This document shows positions 898 to 20,070 of a DNA stretch of 64,000 nt, piece after piece. How positions within the stretch are numbered: position 1 is the first letter of the stretch; each line of letters begins with the position of its first letter. The DNA lies in sequence record OR699282.2; one strand, given 5' to 3'. The stretch comes from Escherichia phage BAU.Micro_ELP-22. Made by a program: the position numbers and the translations under genes. The notes under the pieces are model-generated. The model worked only from the letters and a program-made list of their open reading frames with translations. It was not told the DNA's origin and searched no databases.

Positions 898-1527
898 TAG
901 ACGGCTAAATCAAAATTTTATTTTGTTTTTTCCAATAGTTCCCCTACCGCGTGGGGATAGTTTCCCCGCAGTATCTGGTGTTAGATTTTTCTGAATCTGG
1001 AATCATTATCTTATAAACTGGGGGCAATGTCAACGACCTGGACGGATATTTTTAAAAATTTTTTCAGTACTGAATTTTGGGCGTAACTATGCACCCGGTG
1101 GGCTGGAGTCTTTCTCGACTTGATGGAACTATTATACAGTACTGGAAAAATAAAGCAATACCCTGGAAGCAAAAAAGTTTTAATTAATTTGCTTGCTATC
1201 CTGGGCCGGACTATGGTACTATAATTCAGTACTGAGAAAGTGCGTTTGCCTGCTAGGGTGCGGGAGTGTATCCTTTTTTTATATCTTGAATTTTGGGCGT
1301 AATTCCGCACCCTCTGGGGTTTCCGCTTTCTCGTGTCTATGTAGTAATTATACGCTTTTTCAGGATCAAGTCAATACCTAAAAACAAAATAATTGAAAAT
1401 AATTTAACGCGTTTAAACGGCCTGTAAAGCCCTGGAATGATTGGAATGGTGCAAATGTATAGCTTATGTGTATTAATGCGTTAGAATGCGTCTGAGGCCG
1501 TTTTTTGGGGTGTAGTAGTGATTTGGT

Positions 1528-2836: not shown

Positions 2837-3103
2837 ATGAATATTAAGTATTTTGCGACGCGTGAACAAGCTCGGATCGCCGCACGCCAGGACGGGGCAA
2901 CGTTTAAAGATATGGGCGTACAATCGGAACGTGGTAAACGTTGGGCCATTGTAAAGCGTAGTACCGCCAGATCATTACAGTACTGGTTAGCGGCCTTAAA
3001 AAGTCCCGATAGTGTATCGCGTCGAGTGGTAGAAATAAAGCTCGACCGAAAGGGCAACCGCGTGACCGTGTACCGTACTAAAAAGATTGCAGTACTTGAA
3101 TAA
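2837..3103 (+). CDS. hypothetical protein, early paralog family B (88 aa)
   Basis: Track ORF 2801 trimmed to ATG 2837; N-terminal YFATREQARIAAR..TFKDMG and C-terminal DRKGNRVTVY shared with 16025..16420. Confidence 0.65.
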   Translation: MNIKYFATREQARIAARQDGATFKDMGVQSERGKRWAIVKRSTARSLQYWLAALKSPDSVSRRVVEIKLDRKGNRVTVYRTKKIAVLE

Positions 3104-3105
3104 AA

Positions 3106-3169
3106 AGTACTTGCAAACTAAGTTTAAAAGCGTATAATGTTTTACATCGAGAGCGGGAACACTTCCCGC
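3106..3169 (+). promoter_or_regulatory. PeSL-like promoter cassette
   Basis: AGTACT 3106-3111, TTGCAA 3111-3116, TATAAT 3133-3138, hairpin GCGGGAACACTTCCCGC 3153-3169. Confidence 0.7.
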
Positions 3170-3190
3170 CTATAACCTGGAGTAATAAAA

Positions 3191-3421
3191 ATGACTAATA
3201 TGTATATGACTGAAGTTAAAACCGTAAAAGATACTACCACAAATAAAGTTACTTACTTACAGCGGATCTGTGGTGTATGGCAACGTATCAGCAAATCAAA
3301 GTACTTTAAATTAACATCATATGCAAACCGTTCGGATTCATTCAGTACTGAAATAAAAGGTAATAAAGTACACCAATATGGCACTTATTATTATTATAGC
3401 CTGGACGCGATTGCAGTATAA
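3191..3421 (+). CDS. hypothetical protein (76 aa)
   Basis: ATG 3191 with SD GGAG; follows PeSL. Confidence 0.7.
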   Translation: MTNMYMTEVKTVKDTTTNKVTYLQRICGVWQRISKSKYFKLTSYANRSDSFSTEIKGNKVHQYGTYYYYSLDAIAV

Positions 3422-3451
3422 GCAGTTTACAAATCTTTACAATTGCCGGTA

Positions 3452-3530
3452 TTGACTTATTTTGTCAGTACTGGCATAATGTATTCATTGGCAGATAAGC
3501 CGTAGCCCATAGGGTGCGGGAGTGTATCTA
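3452..3530 (+). repeat. Repeated intergenic element, type A (promoter-like + conserved GCCCAyAGGGTGC segment)
   Basis: TTGACT 3452-3457, CATAAT 3475-3480, then CATTG..AGATA..TAGCCCATAGGGTGCGGGAGTGTATCT; related copies at 10639, 14687, 17668, 19931. Confidence 0.6.
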
Positions 3531-3561
3531 TAGAAAAATTAGTTTAGTATAGTTACAATTG

Positions 3562-3625
3562 TGCACCCGGTGGGTTAGCTGTTGTCATGTGGTATATTAT
3601 GCCAGTACTTGATAATGCTGTCAAT
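3562..3625 (-). repeat. Repeated intergenic element, type B (minus-strand promoter-like + CTAACCCACCGGGTGC)
   Basis: Reverse complement reads TTGACA-17-CATAAT then ..CTAACCCACCGGGTGCAC; convergent with element at 3452-3530; similar to 5798-5869 and 12313-12388. Confidence 0.55.
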
Positions 3626-3665
3626 ACTTTTTTTTACTATTCAGTACTGAAAACTATTTTTAAAA

Positions 3666-3698
3666 AGTACTTGCAAACTATGTTTAAAGGCGTATAAT
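3666..3698 (+). promoter_or_regulatory. PeSL-type promoter driving a non-coding element
   Basis: AGTACT 3666-3671, TTGCAA 3671-3676, TATAAT 3693-3698. Confidence 0.65.
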
Positions 3699-3705
3699 GT
3701 TTTAC

Positions 3706-3780
3706 ATCAGGACGGGGAACGAAATAAGTAACTTCCCGTTAAGTAGCCCAGGAGTAAGGCACACGAAAAACTCCCCTGAT
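3706..3780 (+). ncRNA. Candidate small structured RNA (repeated about 75-nt element)
   Basis: Starts at predicted TSS; closing helix ATCAGG/CCTGAT plus internal helix ACGGGGAA/TTCCCGT; no ATG; second copy at 14831-14903 with substitutions and a 2-nt indel. Confidence 0.4.
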
Positions 3781-3788
3781 AAAATAGT

Positions 3789-3816
3789 TTGACAAATGTT
3801 TTTAAAAGCGTATAAT
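3789..3816 (+). promoter_or_regulatory. sigma70-like promoter
   Basis: TTGACA 3789-3794, 16-bp spacer, TATAAT 3811-3816. Confidence 0.6.
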
Positions 3817-3848
3817 ACTTACATCAACTACTGAATGAGGGTTACAAA

Positions 3849-4537
3849 ATGAAAACTATCACTACTACTACTTTCGTTATGGATTTTTCTGAATTGAACG
3901 CAGAACAAAAAACGTCAGCTATCGAACTGGTTCGGGAACGTGAAAAAAACTCAAACGACATTTTTCTGAATTGAACGCAGAACAAAAAACGTCAGCTATC
4001 GAACTGGTTCGGGAACGTGAAAAAAACTCAAACGACAATTATTTTTCTGAAAGTGAAATTGAATACTATAAAGAAACAGTACTACCGGAATATGGCATTA
4101 ATGACGCTGAAATACAATTCAGTGGTTTTTGGTCCCAGGGTGACGGTGCATCAATCAGTACTGACCACGTTGACGCAGTGAAGTTTTTACGCAAGGTAAG
4201 AGCATTAACTAAGTATCGCTCAATCCGTCACTTGCTGAATGAAGATGATTTGGCGATGAGTGTAAAGCGTTCGCACTCCCACTACTCGCATGAGAATACT
4301 GTAAGCGGGTACATTGAATCGGCTTACACTGATTTAACCGCAAAACAAGAAACGTTAGTTAATGAGCTTGAGGAACTACTCACTGAAACTATTCGTGAAT
4401 TGTCCCGCAAGTTGTACCGTGATTTAGAGAATGCATATGAGGATCAATTCACTACTGAAAACATTACGGCACTGATTGAGGGTAACGAGTATCAATTCAA
4501 TGTTATTGATGGCGTAGTGGAATCAATCGAATATTAA
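3849..4537 (+). pseudogene. Acidic hypothetical protein gene disrupted by a 77-bp perfect tandem duplication
   Basis: ATG 3849; units 3884-3960 and 3961-4037 identical; 77 is not a multiple of 3, so frame from 3849 stops at 3972-3974 and the remainder (3971..4537) lacks an ATG; removing one unit restores one ORF. Confidence 0.7.
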
Positions 4538-4544
4538 TTTAAAA

Positions 4545-4600
4545 AGTACTTGTTTAAAGGCGTATAATACTTTATATCGAGGCGGGGAGTGGTTCCCCGC
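4545..4600 (+). promoter_or_regulatory. Degenerate PeSL cassette (shortened spacer)
   Basis: AGTACT 4545-4550, TATAAT 4563-4568 but -35/-10 spacing collapsed relative to other copies; hairpin GCGGGGAGTGGTTCCCCGC 4582-4600. Confidence 0.4.
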
Positions 4601-4619
4601 TCAAACGAGGATTAAAAAA

Positions 4620-4859
4620 ATGGCTAGTACTAAAACTTACAACGGGCACAAAAACAAAACTCATTGGAATGTAAGCCTTTGGATTAATAACGGTGAGTCA
4701 TTGTATCGGCTTGCTCAAAGTTGCATCGCACAAAGTAGAACTAAAGATATTGCAGCGGAATGTATGTACCGCAGATTAAAAGCCAACGGTACTACTACAA
4801 CGCCGGACGGATTCAAATATAGCACTACTGCGATCCGTGCGGCGATGGTTGGAATGTAA
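4620..4859 (+). CDS. hypothetical protein, early paralog family A (79 aa)
   Basis: ATG 4620, SD GAGGA; paralog of 2507..2746. Confidence 0.7.
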   Translation: MASTKTYNGHKNKTHWNVSLWINNGESLYRLAQSCIAQSRTKDIAAECMYRRLKANGTTTTPDGFKYSTTAIRAAMVGM

Positions 4860-4916
4860 TATTCAGTACTGAGATAATGGCGGGTAATAGTTCCCGCCTT
4901 TACTGAGGGTTATCTA

Positions 4917-5204
4917 ATGAGTAAAGTAATAAAGTACAATGTGTTAAGCAAATCATTGTCTATCAGTGAATGCACCGATGGTTTTTGGATGTACGATGAA
5001 ACGCGTGGCATGAATTTAGCTATGCGTGCAAAAACTGCTGAGGCGGCGTATATTCAAGCACTGGAATACTACCAGGAACGTTTAAAGGAAGTAGAAGAAG
5101 ATTATAAAAGCCTCAAAGCGAAAGTAGATCATTTCGTCGGTCAATTCGTGGAAGACAACGACGAGGACGGGCACTACTGCGACCGTTGCGGATCTTACAG
5201 TTAA
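4917..5204 (+). CDS. hypothetical protein (95 aa), C-terminal Cys pair
   Basis: ATG 4917, SD GAGGG; start context CTGAGGGTTATCTAATGAGT repeated at next gene. Confidence 0.65.
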   Translation: MSKVIKYNVLSKSLSISECTDGFWMYDETRGMNLAMRAKTAEAAYIQALEYYQERLKEVEEDYKSLKAKVDHFVGQFVEDNDEDGHYCDRCGSYS

Positions 5205-5221
5205 GTACTGAGGATTATCTA

Positions 5222-5425
5222 ATGAGTGATTTAATCGACCGCATCAAAGAGCTTGAAGAAAAAGAATTGCAGTTGATCGGGTTACGGAATAAAGTATTCC
5301 ATGATTTAGGTGGCTTTATTAATGCCTGGGATAGTGGCGATCCTGATGCGTTACCTGCTAACCGCCAGGCGATGATCAATGATGTGCGTGGTGTCTTTGA
5401 GTATGTTTTAAAGCAATTAAATTAA
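5222..5425 (+). CDS. hypothetical protein (67 aa)
   Basis: Track ORF 5186 (TTG) trimmed to ATG 5222; SD GAGGA. Confidence 0.65.
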   Translation: MSDLIDRIKELEEKELQLIGLRNKVFHDLGGFINAWDSGDPDALPANRQAMINDVRGVFEYVLKQLN

Positions 5426-5428
5426 AAA

Positions 5429-5492
5429 AGTACTTGCAATTAGTTTTCAGTACTGTATAATGGTTTACATCAAAGGGAGAAATGGTTCTCCC
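5429..5492 (+). promoter_or_regulatory. PeSL-like promoter cassette
   Basis: AGTACT 5429-5434, TTGCAA 5434-5439, TATAAT 5456-5461, hairpin GGGAGAAATGGTTCTCCC 5475-5492. Confidence 0.7.
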
Positions 5493-5511
5493 TGGTAATG
5501 AGGAAAATAAA

Positions 5512-5733
5512 ATGGCAAATATCACTACTCTTTCCCAACTGGAAGCACTGGTTAAATCTATGCGGGAACATGCCGACAAAATCGGCGTACAAGATCCAGC
5601 CGTTTGCTTCTGCGACGAATTGAATGATGATACCCTGGTAATAGCAGAAGTCCAGGACGTTTCTAACTATTCCTCGCGTTACACTGGCGGCGTAGCAAAT
5701 AAAGGTGACTTCTGTTTATACCTTACAAAATAA
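5512..5733 (+). CDS. hypothetical protein (73 aa)
   Basis: Track ORF 5482 trimmed to ATG 5512; SD GAGGAA. Confidence 0.7.
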   Translation: MANITTLSQLEALVKSMREHADKIGVQDPAVCFCDELNDDTLVIAEVQDVSNYSSRYTGGVANKGDFCLYLTK

Positions 5734-5738
5734 CAACG

Positions 5739-5768
5739 CGGGGAGATAATAACTCCCCGTTACTTTTT
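5739..5768 (+). terminator. Rho-independent terminator
   Basis: Stem CGGGGAG/CTCCCCG 5739-5759 with loop ATAATAA, then TTACTTTTTC. Confidence 0.65.
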
Positions 5769-5797
5769 CAGTACTGAATCATTTAATAGACGGATCT

Positions 5798-5869
5798 CGG
5801 CACCCGGTGGGTTAGTGACTGTTTCGTCTTGATGTAGTAATTATGCCAGTACTGGATGCACTTGTCAAC
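5798..5869 (-). repeat. Repeated intergenic element, type B
   Basis: Reverse complement: TTGACA-17-CATAAT then ACATCAAGACGAAACAGTCACTAACCCACCGGGTGC. Confidence 0.55.
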
Positions 5870-5901
5870 AACTATTTTTCAAATACTTTTTATTAAAATA
5901 C

Positions 5902-5954
5902 TTGCTAATAGTTTTTAAACGCGTATAATGTTTTGCATAGGGGAGCGGTTCCCC
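5902..5954 (+). promoter_or_regulatory. PeSL-like promoter cassette
   Basis: TTGCTA 5902-5907, TATAAT 5924-5929, hairpin GGGGAGCGGTTCCCC 5940-5954. Confidence 0.65.
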
Positions 5955-5975
5955 TGGTAACTAAGGAATAAGAAA

Positions 5976-6212
5976 ATGCTTGAACAAATCAAATCAACGT
6001 CTGCTAATGTAACGGGAACGGTATCACACTTTATTGGTGATGAATCGCGGGGCGTTCCCTATTGTGCTGTACATGTAAACACTGAGGGTAACTACTGGTT
6101 TACGGTTTACGGATCATATTCATTTGGACGGCCAGGGCATCAAAAAATTCTGGATAAAGTACAGCCAACGGGTAAAAATATCACGGCTGAAATGTTTTAT
6201 AAAAAATCATAA
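5976..6212 (+). CDS. hypothetical protein (78 aa)
   Basis: ATG 5976, SD AAGGAA. Confidence 0.7.
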   Translation: MLEQIKSTSANVTGTVSHFIGDESRGVPYCAVHVNTEGNYWFTVYGSYSFGRPGHQKILDKVQPTGKNITAEMFYKKS

Positions 6213-6276
6213 AGTACTTGATAATAGTTTTTAGTACTGTATAATATTTTACATAGCACGGGGGAGCGGTTCCCCC
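6213..6276 (+). promoter_or_regulatory. PeSL-like promoter cassette
   Basis: AGTACT 6213-6218, TTGATA 6218-6223, TATAAT 6240-6245, hairpin GGGGGAGCGGTTCCCCC 6260-6276. Confidence 0.7.
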
Positions 6277-6296
6277 TGGTAACTAAGGATAATCAA

Positions 6297-6596
6297 ATGA
6301 AAATTGCAATCATCGCCCTGGCTTTATCTGTTTCCTCTTTCGCTGTTAATGCGTCGTTAGATGTGAGTAGTGAAAAATTCATTCAGTGCACTGTTGCGAT
6401 GACCAATGAAAGTACGGGCGAGATTGTTTTAAAGGATTTAGAGATCCAGCCACAAGCATTTAAAAACGGGCCGTTCCATGAAGAAGACGAAAACGGTAGC
6501 ACAACCATTTACTATGATGCCAGTACTAAACGCGGTTCGGTCACGGTTATGGATACTGAGAAAGTAACTCATACAGGCGTTATTAATTGCCGTTGA
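6297..6596 (+). CDS. small secreted/periplasmic protein (99 aa) with N-terminal signal peptide
   Basis: MKIAIIALALSVSSFAVNA-SLD: basic N-terminus, hydrophobic core, AxA-like cleavage motif; SD AAGGA. Confidence 0.65.
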   Translation: MKIAIIALALSVSSFAVNASLDVSSEKFIQCTVAMTNESTGEIVLKDLEIQPQAFKNGPFHEEDENGSTTIYYDASTKRGSVTVMDTEKVTHTGVINCR

Positions 6597-6617
6597 TTGA
6601 TACTACGGGGTAACATC

Positions 6618-6848
6618 ATGACAGCACGAATAGTTTTACTTAACGAAAGCAGTACTACACAACTACTTAACGCCGTGCATTATGATATTGAAACGAGCGT
6701 TAATCTTATCAGTACTGTCGTACTGTTGGACACTGGAAAGGTCGCCAATGATAAAGCGATTGCAGGTATACTAACGGATCTTGAGCCTGGTAGCAGTGCA
6801 CCAATAACGTTAAATGGTAAAGTGTTTAACATTTTACTTACTGATTAA
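6618..6848 (+). CDS. hypothetical protein (76 aa)
   Basis: Track ORF 6597 trimmed to ATG 6618 (GGGG upstream); immediately follows 6297..6596. Confidence 0.55.
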   Translation: MTARIVLLNESSTTQLLNAVHYDIETSVNLISTVVLLDTGKVANDKAIAGILTDLEPGSSAPITLNGKVFNILLTD

Positions 6849-6854
6849 GTACAT

Positions 6855-6883
6855 AGCCCACCTGGTGGGCTTTTTTGTTTTTG
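6855..6883 (+). terminator. Rho-independent terminator
   Basis: AGCCCACC..GGTGGGCT stem followed by TTTTTTGTTTTTG. Confidence 0.7.
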
Positions 6884-6930
6884 TAGTATCGTAGTACTGA
6901 GATACTTTGAAAATAGTTTTAAAAAAGTAG

Positions 6931-6958
6931 TTGACATTACCGCAGAAAAGCGTAGAAT
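6931..6958 (+). promoter_or_regulatory. sigma70-like promoter
   Basis: TTGACA 6931-6936, 16-bp spacer, TAGAAT 6953-6958. Confidence 0.6.
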
Positions 6959-6965
6959 GTATTAC

Positions 6966-7027
6966 ATCAAGACGGGGAGCACTAAGTAGACCGCCAGTAA
7001 GTCGAACGAAAAACTGGACACGTCGAG
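6966..7027 (+). ncRNA. Diverged third copy of the candidate structured RNA element
   Basis: ATCAAGACGGGGAGC..AAGTAG..CAGTAAG..ACGAAAAACT resembles 3706-3780 and 14831-14903; no ORF. Confidence 0.3.
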
Positions 7028-7585: not shown

Positions 7586-7613
7586 AGCCCACCTTAAACG
7601 GTGGGCTTTTTTG
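7586..7613 (+). terminator. Rho-independent terminator
   Basis: AGCCCACC-TTAAAC-GGTGGGCT then TTTTTTG. Confidence 0.8.
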
Positions 7614-7761
7614 TGTTTATCGTTTACCAGGCCACCAGCACCGCCTAGAAACGATTCTAACGCATTAAACTGATTATCTGATGCATTGCCCTAGCTGGTG
7701 GCGTTAAGGTCGTTGTAATGCGATTGAGAGCGTTTAAAGTATTTTGCAAAAAGTAATAAAA

Positions 7762-10629: not shown

Positions 10630-10638
10630 AAAAAGTGG

Positions 10639-10717
10639 TTGACTCCGGTCAGCCATTTTGCTATTATATATTCATTGAGAGATAGCTCACTAGCCCACAG
10701 GGTGCAGGAGTGTATCT
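10639..10717 (+). repeat. Repeated intergenic element, type A
   Basis: TTGACTCCGGTCAG..TATTATAT then CATTGAGAGATAGCTCACTAGCCCACAGGGTGCAGGAGTGTATCT. Confidence 0.6.
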
Positions 10718-10766
10718 ATTGTATAATGTTTGAGTACTGAAAACTATTTTAAAGTATTTGATAAAA

Positions 10767-10830
10767 AGTACTTGCAAACTATCTCAATAAGCGTATAATG
10801 TTTTACATCGCAAGGGGAAACGGTTTCCCC
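10767..10830 (+). promoter_or_regulatory. PeSL-like promoter cassette
   Basis: AGTACT 10767-10772, TTGCAA 10772-10777, TATAAT 10794-10799, hairpin GGGGAAACGGTTTCCCC 10814-10830. Confidence 0.7.
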
Positions 10831-10850
10831 TAGTAATAAGGAAACGAATC

Positions 10851-12110: not shown

Positions 12111-12308
12111 ATGATTAGCATGAAATCAGTACAAAAACAAATAGAAACATTATCAAAAATTAAACGTAAACAGTACTCCTTAGAATATACAATCAATGGT
12201 AACTATCATCTAATGAAAGAAAATAATTTTATAGTCATTGATGAATCATTGCAAATCATTAGTATAGTACTGAAAGCATTAATCAATGACAGAAAAAAAT
12301 TAAAATAA
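12111..12308 (+). CDS. hypothetical protein (65 aa)
   Basis: ATG 12111; weak SD; AT-rich. Confidence 0.4.
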   Translation: MISMKSVQKQIETLSKIKRKQYSLEYTINGNYHLMKENNFIVIDESLQIISIVLKALINDRKKLK

Positions 12309-12312
12309 ACTA

Positions 12313-12388
12313 TTGACAATATCATCCAGTACTGGCATAATACTTACATCAAGACGAGAACGTCACTAACCCATAGGGTGCACAAATG
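12313..12388 (+). repeat. Repeated intergenic element (B-type sequence, plus orientation)
   Basis: TTGACA 12313-12318, CATAAT 12336-12341, then ACATCAAGACGAGAACGTCACTAACCCATAGGGTGCACA. Confidence 0.55.
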
Positions 12389-12403
12389 TAACTGTATAAT
12401 ATT

Positions 12404-14658: not shown

Positions 14659-14686
14659 AAATAATTGAAAAAGGGATTGACTCCGG

Positions 14687-14750
14687 TCAGTCCCTTTGCT
14701 ATTATATACGCATAGAAACAAATCAGCCCACAGGGTGCATAAATGTATCT
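14687..14750 (+). repeat. Repeated intergenic element, type A
   Basis: TTGACTCCGGTCAGTCCCTTTGCTATTATAT then CGCATAGAAACAAATCAGCCCACAGGGTGCATAAATGTATCT. Confidence 0.6.
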
Positions 14751-14790
14751 ATTGTTAGCTGGTGGCTAGTACTGAAAACTATTTTTAAAA

Positions 14791-14823: not shown

Positions 14824-14830
14824 GTTTTAC

Positions 14831-14903
14831 ATCAGGACGGGGAACGAAACAAGTAACCCCGTTAAGTAGTCCAGGAGTAAGACATACGAAAACCTCCCCT
14901 GAT
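14831..14903 (+). ncRNA. Candidate small structured RNA (second copy)
   Basis: ATCAGGACGGGGAACGAAACAAGTAACCCCGTTAAGTAGTCCAGGAGTAAGACATACGAAAACCTCCCCTGAT; same layout as 3706-3780. Confidence 0.4.
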
Positions 14904-17649: not shown

Positions 17650-17667
17650 AAAAGATTAAAAAAGGGA

Positions 17668-17746
17668 TTGACTCCGGTCAGTCCCTTTGCTATTATATAT
17701 CCATTGAGAGATAACTCACTGACCCATAGGGTGCGGAAGTGTATCT
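17668..17746 (+). repeat. Repeated intergenic element, type A
   Basis: TTGACTCCGGTCAGTCCCTTTGCTATTATAT then CATTGAGAGATAACTCACTGACCCATAGGGTGCGGAAGTGTATCT. Confidence 0.6.
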
Positions 17747-17785
17747 ATTATATAAGTATTCAGTACTGAAAACTATTTGATAAAA

Positions 17786-17850
17786 AGTACTTGCATTGTA
17801 CTTAGAATCAAGTATAATGTTTTATATCGAGAGGGGGAAATGGTTCTCCC
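17786..17850 (+). promoter_or_regulatory. PeSL-like promoter cassette
   Basis: AGTACT 17786-17791, TTGCAT 17791-17796, TATAAT 17813-17818, hairpin GGGGGAAATGGTTCTCCC 17833-17850. Confidence 0.7.
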
Positions 17851-17872
17851 TGGTATATTAAGGAATAAAATC

Positions 17873-18094
17873 ATGACTACAATGACTTGCATTTACGCTT
17901 CCAATCTTCTGAATGATGCGGCCTTTAATGTTGATTCAGAATATCAATGTTATCGGGATGAAAATAAAAAAGTTTTTGTAGTTGATAATAATGGTTTCCA
18001 TATTGAATTGCAATCCGGTTTCACTGGTGTTGATGGTAAATCAGTATGGGGCGTACAGGATGATAAAGGCACATATCATTTTAAACGTAATTAA
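17873..18094 (+). CDS. hypothetical protein (73 aa)
   Basis: Track ORF 17777 trimmed to ATG 17873; SD AAGGAA. Confidence 0.7.
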   Translation: MTTMTCIYASNLLNDAAFNVDSEYQCYRDENKKVFVVDNNGFHIELQSGFTGVDGKSVWGVQDDKGTYHFKRN

Positions 18095-19909: not shown

Positions 19910-19930
19910 CAAAAAAGAATAAAAAAGGGA

Positions 19931-20004
19931 TTGACTCCGGTCAGTCCCTTTGCTATTATATACGCATAGACAAAAACTAGCCCACAGGGTGCATAGGTGT
20001 ATCC
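19931..20004 (+). repeat. Repeated intergenic element, type A
   Basis: TTGACTCCGGTCAGTCCCTTTGCTATTATAT then CGCATAGACAAAAACTAGCCCACAGGGTGCATAGGTGTATCC. Confidence 0.6.
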
Positions 20005-20070
20005 AAAATATATAGTTAATAACGGTGAGTAACTATCTGCTGGTGGAGTGAAAACTATTAATAAAAAAGT

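Follow-up and report, generated by a model that had tools for sequence, protein, structure and literature searches.

A repeated intergenic element in the terminal repeat

The DNA analyzed here is a stretch of 64,000 nucleotides from Escherichia phage BAU.Micro_ELP-22 (record OR699282.2; the window), in which an intergenic element composed of a promoter and a short downstream module recurs between small genes. Bases 3000-7000 were 86 to 96% identical to the 121Q/PBECO4/G17/phAPEC6 group of Asteriusvirus jumbo coliphages, whose genomes are about 350 kb long, and base 1 of the window aligned with base 1 of fEgEco12, vB_Ec-M-J, BF17, CRJP21, and E9.1. Judged from these alignments, the window starts at the physical left end of the genome of a jumbo coliphage in the 121Q/PBECO4 group of Asteriusvirus. 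The physical ends of fEgEco12 were found by experiment, with a direct terminal repeat (DTR) of 20,993 bp (PMC13070987); collinearity with this phage placed the end of the repeat near 21.4 kb of the window. The genes annotated here in G17, UE-S1, 121Q, and fEgEco12 all encode small hypothetical proteins on the plus strand. All ten full copies of the element lie inside the ~21-kb terminal repeat, between small early genes, and according to the gene calls of these four relatives all of them are intergenic.

The elements had been noticed in an earlier reading of the letters alone (the original prediction) as a repeat family of promoter-bearing intergenic units in both orientations, and both points held. 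The motif GCCCAYMGGGTGC, allowing up to two mismatches, gave 12 matches compared to 0.58 expected, a number reached in none of 100 shuffles. Ten of these matches were element copies, and the remaining two (6856/6858) belonged to a terminator stem. Furthermore, nhmmer and a covariance model (CM) each returned exactly ten full-length copies, six on the plus strand and four on the minus strand, here numbered from the left. The predicted copy list was correct apart from small details of coordinates and consensus: one −35 hexamer placed at 14687 starts at 14677, and the −10 hexamer, described as (T/C)ATAAT, is TATTAT in four of the ten copies (the others have CATAAT four times and TATAAT twice). 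The copies near 1085-1365, considered degenerate, are both full (1075-1164 and 1291-1382). The conserved segment of ~45 nt ending in GGGTGC is real, but conservation extends ~18 nt past GGGTGC.

In the oriented alignment, an A-rich upstream stretch is followed by the −35 hexamer TTGACT or TTGACA, a 17-bp spacer, the −10 hexamer, 7 nt, and a module of ~49 nt. The promoter combines an UP element with near-consensus sigma-70 hexamers, and its −10 is mostly preceded by TGn (extended −10). The 7 nt after the −10 end in a conserved CAT, the A of which is the start predicted from promoter geometry.

BLAST with one copy detected matches only in Rak2-like jumbo phages of Enterobacterales (67 records, several places per genome), the hosts of which are Escherichia, Klebsiella, Salmonella, Erwinia, Yersinia, Cronobacter, Pectobacterium, and Serratia. 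With a covariance model named R1, the E-values of which are rough, the early regions of K64-1, CBB, Serratia BF, 7t3, PHA46, and fHe-Yen9-03 were found to contain 7 to 14 copies each. In total, 66 module copies were found in seven loci from six phage lineages. The family is conserved over Asteriusvirus, Alcyoneusvirus, Mimasvirus, Eneladusvirus, and the 7t3/PHA46 group, and 13 nt are invariant across genera whose flanks share only ~75% identity. No case of a module without a promoter was found among the 66 copies in the seven loci. The strict promoter pattern at fixed distance (TTGACT/A, 17-bp spacer, TAnnnT) was present in 63 of the 66 leaders, and promoters were visible in the remaining three; a 17-bp spacer was counted in 50 copies and TGn in 39, with A-tracts upstream.

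The module downstream of the promoter and its covariation

The module has the consensus 5'-AU-[hp1]-CUA-[hp2 RCCC N3-4 GGGU]-GC-N5-6-(N)YRYCY-AUW. Its first hairpin, hp1, has 4 to 5 bp and starts 2 to 3 nt from the predicted 5' end. The stem sequence is free yet always complementary, and the loops of 6 to 7 nt are purine-rich (GCGAAA, AGAUAA, AGAACAA). In an alignment-free test, 31 of 49 copies had a stem of 4 bp or more that ended 1 to 4 nt before hp2, with 28 distinct stem sequences, while 1000 shuffles gave 10.7 ± 2.8 (maximum, 21). This position-constrained test was used because an unconstrained search for the best hairpin was uninformative due to AT-rich alternatives. On the model alignments, hp1 was 96% paired, and all four pairs changed on both sides (89 cells); this level was matched by none of 500 shuffles, and slid controls were 33 to 54% paired. 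A model-fitted alignment inflates pairing and leans to hp1 and hp2, but the alignment-free hp1 test agreed with it.

The second hairpin, hp2, was 99.2% paired, with an invariant CC/GG, a closing pair that is A-U or G-U at a ratio of 40:20, and an inner C-G pair replaced by U-A in two phages (CBB 16111 and fHe-Yen9-03 4611). In an alternative hairpin, hp3, the YRYCY tail pairs with the same GGGUG. Here, pairing was 97.7% over five pairs, with 53 one-sided changes (G-U/G-C and U-A/U-G). While hp2 has ~ −4.0 kcal/mol in all copies, hp3 was more stable than hp2 in 26 of 51. Since hp2 and hp3 share GGGUG and are mutually exclusive, the module looks two-state. The five tail columns showed 50 transitions and 6 transversions, compared to 174:137 in the other variable unpaired columns, cells that are not phylogenetically independent; likewise, the copies within one genome are paralogues, and counts over them are not independent events.

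Given the heavy use of G-U pairs, the opposite strand could not form these hairpins, which are therefore specific to the strand that the attached promoter transcribes. By comparison of the copies, selection was shown to act on the RNA, that is, on the promoter's sense strand, and the element is very probably a promoter-coupled structured RNA. The original prediction had also offered binding sites for a phage or host protein; as sites on the DNA, these would leave the covarying stems and the transcribed-strand pattern of G-U pairs and transitions unexplained.

Three further candidates for the module were rejected. As an intrinsic terminator, hp3 fails in full copies, which continue with AUU/AAAA; a U-run follows only at a fragment at 1255-1274. 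GGA loops of the CsrA type occur in only ~40% of the copies. For a conserved mini-open reading frame (mini-ORF) after the GGAG-like loop, neither frame nor presence was conserved.

Promoters, terminators, and the three contexts of the module

In four forward copies (6, 8, 9, and 10), the −35 hexamer forms part of AAAGGGA-TTGAC-TCCG-GTCAG-TCCCTTT. This hairpin is UNCG-capped, lies between an A-run and a T-run, scores as a terminator, and is bidirectional. Copy 6 (10630-10721) has its −35 TTGACT (10639) inside the terminator hairpin 10632-10659, the −10 TGcTATTAT, and a leader at 10673-10721. The corresponding −35, hairpin, and leader are at 14677, 14670-14697, and 14711-14754 in copy 8 (14668-14754), at 17668, 17661-17688, and 17702-17750 in copy 9 (17659-17750; 62.4 bits with the CM), and at 19931, 19924-19951, and 19965-20008 in copy 10 (19922-20008); copies 8 and 10 are without hp1. 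The arrangement is also present in many copies of BF, 7t3, and K64-1, and the stem of the −35 hairpin covaries between genera (GGGG/CCCC, GAGG/CCTT, AAGAC/GTCTT). In such copies, the same 90 bp would stop transcription arriving from upstream and then restart it. The proposed insulator function thus fits these four forward copies, but as a property of the promoter part and not of the conserved 45-nt segment. The six other window copies are without a terminator overlapping the −35 and carry CCAGTACTGG in the spacer instead. Among them is the remaining forward copy outside the pair described below, copy 7 (12307-12397), with TTGACA-17-CATAAT (12313-12341), CCAGTACTGG in the spacer, and a leader at 12349-12397.

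The module was found in three contexts. Unpaired reverse copies (n = 7, in five phages) have one common layout, in which the module is followed by 5 to 8 nt, (C)AGTACTG, an A-rich stretch, and a strong hairpin with a U-run at +67 to +97. Both an own promoter and an own Rho-independent terminator were detected for the window unit 5877-5730(−) and for six units in K64-1, 7t3, BF, and CBB. In the window unit (copy 5; full copy at 5784-5877), the promoter TTGACA-17-CATAAT (5868-5840) precedes the leader 5832-5784, CAGTACTG at 5776-5769, and the bidirectional terminator 5759-5739 with its U-run; the predicted RNA is ~105 nt long. The hairpin 5739-5759 doubles as the terminator of the upstream plus-strand gene. 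The terminated reverse units do not overlap coding sequences, and the reverse copies lie back-to-back with the promoter of the next gene. We conclude that the reverse units are likely discrete small RNAs (sRNAs) of ~100 nt with predicted promoters and terminators of their own. The original suggestion of short non-coding transcripts fits these copies, with their ~100 nt to an intrinsic terminator and the RNA-level selection evident from covariation. An antisense role, also suggested, could be marginal at best: the only overlap of the terminated reverse units is with the shared terminator, the exception being the unterminated unit 3547-3631(−).

Two further reverse copies are close to the genome end. 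Copy 1 (1075-1164, minus strand) has a weak −35 TTGCTT, CCAGTACTG in the spacer, TATAAT, and a leader at 1123-1075 (64 bits with nhmmer and 47.9 bits with the CM). Copy 2 (1291-1382, minus strand) has TTGACT-16-TATAAT and a leader at 1339-1291. It is faced by the 3' fragment of a forward copy (1255-1274, plus strand; partial nhmmer match), consisting of GGGTGCGGGAGTGTATCC and then T7, which acts like an intrinsic terminator according to the terminator scan.

The forward orientation, along the genes, was found in 47 of the 66 copies. Forward copies have no terminator after the module. Instead, AGTACTG-AAAA follows 10 to 25 nt on, and an AT-rich stretch leads to a second promoter, AAAAAGTACTTGCAA-16-TATAAT, the −35 of which overlaps another AGTACT. 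This promoter has its own 5' hairpin leader, then a ribosome-binding site (RBS), and then the gene. A single 7t3 copy runs directly into the RBS and ATG of a gene. In forward copies, the module would accordingly be placed by the promoter model at the 5' end of a predicted early mRNA.

In the third context, two modules face each other head-on across 13 to 31 nt, mostly 13 to 14, each half having a separate promoter. Such pairs were found in every lineage examined: one in the window (3486-3533 / 3547-3584), three in CBB, two in 7t3, and one each in BF and K64-1. The window pair had been predicted as a convergent pair at 3452-3625 forming a long inverted repeat; indeed, the leaders face each other 13 to 14 nt apart and fold as one long hairpin (plus-strand RNA, −42.8 kcal/mol, z −5.7; minus-strand RNA, −28.8 kcal/mol, z −4.7). 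Its forward half, copy 3 (3446-3533), has TTGACT-17-CATAAT (3452-3480) with CAGTACTGG in the spacer and the leader 3486-3533. Its reverse half, copy 4 (3547-3631), has TTGACA-17-CATAAT (3624-3596) and the leader 3584-3547, which is without hp1. The pair located ~3.5 kb from the genome end follows the same AATCTTTACAAA in four genera and is therefore a positional orthologue.

The elements are surrounded by other promoters. Nearly every small gene in the terminal repeat has its own strong promoter, and eleven perfect-consensus promoters (TTGACA-16/17-TATAAT) are present within 20 kb, all on the plus strand (366-393, 3789-3816, 11207, 11790, 12905, 13943, 15252, 15521, 15952, 18098, and 19626). 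A further class in the window is TTGCAA-16-TATAAT. In the second promoter class, the predicted RNA opens with a conserved 5'-terminal hairpin, TATAATGTTTTACAUCGAGAGGGG-AAAUGGUU-CUCCCUC, and an RBS comes next. These hairpins, at ~10800-10850, 14830-14900, and 17830-17880 and also in other genera, make up a second family of conserved leaders. The plus-strand intrinsic terminators at 6855-6871 and 7586-7607 have stems (AGCCCACC...GGTGGGCT) that resemble the AGCCCAC core of the element and match Chi at 7 of 8 positions; from the letters, this likeness may be relationship or coincidence.

Further features of the window concern short sites. The palindrome CAGTACTG occurs 60 times, compared to 0.69 expected (e.g., at 3642-3700, 10738-10800, and 17761-17820), and AGTACT 255 times, compared to ~22 estimated from base composition. 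AGTACT is located in intergenic promoters, where one site overlaps the −35 as AAAAAGTACTTGCAA, another lies ~23 bp upstream, and some are in −35/−10 spacers; it is also found within long ORFs at 37-64 kb and is almost absent at 29-36 kb. This over-representation suggests recognition by a phage protein that binds or modifies DNA. The Chi sequence of E. coli (GCTGGTGG) occurs 12 times in the window compared to 0.41 expected, with 11 of the 12 in the terminal repeat (578-597, 7632-7701, 12027, 13490, 14758, 16829, 18238, 19817, and 20039; also 60026). Nine of these 11 are on the plus strand, and both minus-strand sites adjoin a plus-strand site. Chi is also found beside elements in K64-1, BF, and 7t3. 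The enrichment at linear genome ends looks like protection from RecBCD. The first ~1.7 kb at the physical end (1-1676) are without an annotated gene in relatives, are dense in CAGTACTG sites, and hold an inverted Chi pair (578/590) and two reverse element copies; a 53-bp tandem duplication (GATTGATTCAGTACTGAATAATAGTACTCCTATATAGAAAGA, twice) is at ~1525-1630. This region may be a terminal or packaging/replication-related non-coding region.

Proposed function of the module and alternative explanations

We propose that a compact immediate-early transcription unit begins with each element of the ~21-kb terminal repeat and that the functional product would be the RNA itself. Transcription of reverse copies would proceed ~45 nt past the module to the bidirectional intrinsic terminator and would release a free sRNA of ~100 nt. 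In forward copies, an early mRNA would start with the module and continue by read-through of the second, AGTACT-flanked promoter into the gene, and head-on pairs would yield a ~110-nt self-complementary RNA or mutually complementary RNAs. About ten sibling early RNAs per repeat would be abundant and would present the invariant hp2/GGGUGC to a trans-acting partner, while hp1 would shield the 5' end from 5'-end-dependent decay. To this explanation as a whole (an immediate-early RNA family, a trans-acting partner, and protection by hp1), we assign a probability of roughly 0.55. The main argument that the module acts in trans, beyond any role in cis, is the existence of the stand-alone reverse units. 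The partner would most likely be a host or phage protein, an assignment that is tentative. A protein is favored over a base-pairing target because the invariant bases are paired in both conformations, because the tail evolves to keep its intramolecular pairing, and because no complementary site was found in the window or in an rRNA operon. Protection by hp1 is suggested by an established rule for 5'-terminal stem-loops in E. coli: according to work on the ompA leader by Emory, Bouvet, and Belasco, stem-loops with at most 2 to 4 unpaired 5' nt reportedly stabilize RNAs against RNase E/RppH-dependent decay. The RNA of the second promoter class likewise opens with a hairpin.

Several points weigh against this proposal. 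For this clade, RNA starts, ends, and abundance are all predictions. Since no terminator separates the module of forward copies from the gene, two thirds of the copies could function purely in cis, as leaders. About 20% of the copies are without hp1, and hp2 and hp3 rest mainly on invariance and one-sided changes, with only two double compensations in hp2. Nothing in the sequences searched pointed to a partner: a site complementary to the motif was not found elsewhere in the 64-kb window, and the rrnH operon (16S, 23S, 5S, and three tRNAs) revealed neither mimicry nor complementarity, with 17 shared 10-mers compared to 23 in shuffles. Among 5,426 complete E. coli genomes, none matched the 58-nt leader at E values up to 10, BLAST being blind to seeds shorter than ~20 nt. 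Finally, in the Pseudomonas jumbo phage PA5oct, a distant relative, RNA sequencing revealed two highly expressed non-coding RNAs of 236 to 451 nt from the long terminal repeat, ncRNA001/002 (PMC7318152). They match the module in neither sequence nor structure, and R1 found no match in the first 26 kb of the PA5oct terminal repeat, so that a related phage has terminal-repeat RNAs supported by data, yet without this module.

Two other candidates were dismissed. A 13-mer common to 23S rRNA and a single CBB copy was treated as chance. An RNA anti-CRISPR (solitary CRISPR-repeat mimic) was rejected since the leader had no match in the 5,426 E. coli genomes, and a likeness to type I-F repeats, seen by eye, was limited to the hp1 arm of one subfamily.

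If the RNA is what matters, it could still act only in cis, as a leader for nut/put-like antitermination or arrest, as an enhancer of promoter escape, as an mRNA stabilizer, or as a processing site for RNase E/III, with reverse and paired copies as by-products of duplication and inversion. The module is indeed always at +1 of an early promoter, 47 of the 66 copies run along genes with no terminator before the gene, one 7t3 copy continues straight to an RBS and ATG, and class B promoters also have a 5'-terminal hairpin. Like lambda nut and HK022 put, it is a conserved structured RNA just downstream of phage early promoters, and hp1, a short hairpin with a purine-rich loop, recalls lambda boxB. 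However, the hp1 loop has 6 to 7 nt, is variable in sequence, and belongs to a hairpin missing from about a fifth of the copies. The boxA consensus (CGCUCUUA) was absent from the module alignments, the stems have only 4 to 5 bp and are far smaller than the long put stem-loops, and the invariant hp2/GGGUGC has no counterpart in nut or put. Moreover, the layout of the reverse copies, conserved in five phages, would end transcription shortly after the module, ~45 nt on, which is senseless for an antiterminator or an mRNA leader. Action on downstream terminators is further disfavored because the strong terminators at +67 to +97 delimit the reverse units, and the terminators embedded in promoters speak for termination being put to use rather than overridden. 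The position of head-on pairs, like their gap of ~14 nt, is also conserved across genera. Action only in cis is therefore unlikely. A family of base-pairing sRNAs, in which GGGUGC and the tail would serve as a seed against host or phage mRNAs for early reprogramming in Hfq style, is quite unlikely. Its attraction is that the reverse units resemble classical sRNA genes, with their own promoter, an A/U-rich stretch, a Rho-independent terminator, and a U tail, at a length of ~100 nt also seen for phage and prophage sRNAs. Multicopy sibling sRNAs with a common invariant stretch are a known pattern in bacteria (Qrr, OmrA/B), and the paralogous copies fit it. Yet both predicted conformations leave the invariant stretch paired, the transitions in the tail preserve pairing with GGGUG, unlike the behavior of a seed, and no complementary site was found in the 64-kb window or the rRNA operon. 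Unlike in known sRNA families, the module is also a predicted mRNA 5' leader and a part of head-on pairs, and the forward copies do not qualify as stand-alone genes.

The elements could alternatively work at the DNA level, as regulatory or recombination cassettes, promoter-based insulators, or supercoiling generators, with the downstream segment merely hitch-hiking. The closest known precedent is the PeSL of T4-like phages, a repeated intergenic cassette among small early ORFans (Arbiol et al. 2010, PMC2839356; Comeau et al. 2014, PMC4122927). PeSLs share with the elements a strong sigma-70-type promoter and an AT-rich upstream region. PeSLs also have a stem-loop terminator, which may overlap the −35; of the ten window copies, only 6, 8, 9, and 10 have such a terminator, and these four match the described subclass with a stem-loop overlapping the −35 (PMC2839356). 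In line with a cassette function, small ORFan genes form a hyperplastic array here, relatives differ by indels of gene cassettes, and the reverse copies adjoin the next gene's promoter back-to-back. However, PeSLs have no conserved transcribed RNA module and end in a Shine-Dalgarno sequence and the start codon of the next gene, while in the elements the promoter is followed by the module and then by a second promoter (forward) or a terminator (reverse), the one 7t3 copy excepted. Neither reverse stand-alone units nor head-on pairs with a fixed gap have been described for PeSLs, and they belong to another phage family than the Rak2-like jumbo phages. They also mark indel breakpoints, and the elements did not: in a comparison covering four close relatives (121Q, fEgEco12, G17, and UE-S1), breakpoints were at ~2186/2423, 4611/5419, 7804/7837, 9877/10159, 16709/16794, and 18093/18193, none of them at elements. 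These breakpoints correspond to insertions, deletions, and replacements of whole-gene cassettes in the repeated promoter regions of classes A and B, a PeSL-like modular shuffling. Hitch-hiking, furthermore, would neither preserve a hairpin while its stem took on 28 different sequences nor leave 13 nt unchanged between genera with diverged flanks, and the G-U use and the transition pattern are strand-specific. We consider a function at the DNA level very unlikely. That the elements derive from a decayed protein-coding gene or mobile element has a negligible probability. Descent from gene fragments, named by the original prediction as the finding that would refute it, conflicts with frame-breaking indels of 1 to 7 nt between copies (an hp2 loop of 3 or 4 nt, hp1 present or absent), with variation that is compensatory in the stems and not codon-like, and with the lack of an ORF spanning the element. 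The alignments revealed no target duplications or terminal inverted repeats flanking the copies.

Within the proposal of a trans-acting immediate-early RNA, the mutually exclusive hairpins allow a more specific version, which is doubtful but deserves mention. Here, the module would be a new class of two-state (hp2/hp3) early RNA, about 10 to 20 copies of which would be made from the first DNA entering the cell. It might capture a host protein (a defense sensor, a ribonuclease, or an RNA chaperone) or mark phage RNA or RNA polymerase as self, and would serve all enterobacterial Rak2-like jumbo phages as a device for host takeover or anti-defense.

No earlier description of the module was found. 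Rfam 15 gave no match in the whole window at the gathering score and only two unrelated weak matches in bases 1-21500 at E values up to 5, and a search for tRNA and tmRNA detected none. Literature searches retrieved no earlier description in Rak2-like phages. Publications on CBB, fEgEco12, and PA5oct and jumbo-phage reviews report RpoD-like promoters with UP elements and long terminal repeats, but no transcribed motif; the CBB paper lists 18 such promoters. The RNA family matches no curated Rfam family and nothing in the literature searched, and it is best read as an undescribed immediate-early RNA family.

Rak2-like jumbo phages (121Q, PBECO4, RaK2, K64-1, CBB, GAP32, and relatives) are studied and used for therapy, and their early program is essentially unannotated; so far, their terminal repeats are rows of hypothetical proteins. 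With these results, the early region gains a regulatory grammar of three promoter classes, terminator-in-promoter insulators, and a covarying RNA module, which explains the greater part of the otherwise unexplained conservation between genes of the terminal repeat and which can be annotated with R1 in any related genome. If expressed as predicted, the module would represent a new phage RNA family, with about ten copies per repeat and three modes of deployment, and would provide a tractable entry to the first minutes of Rak2-like infection.

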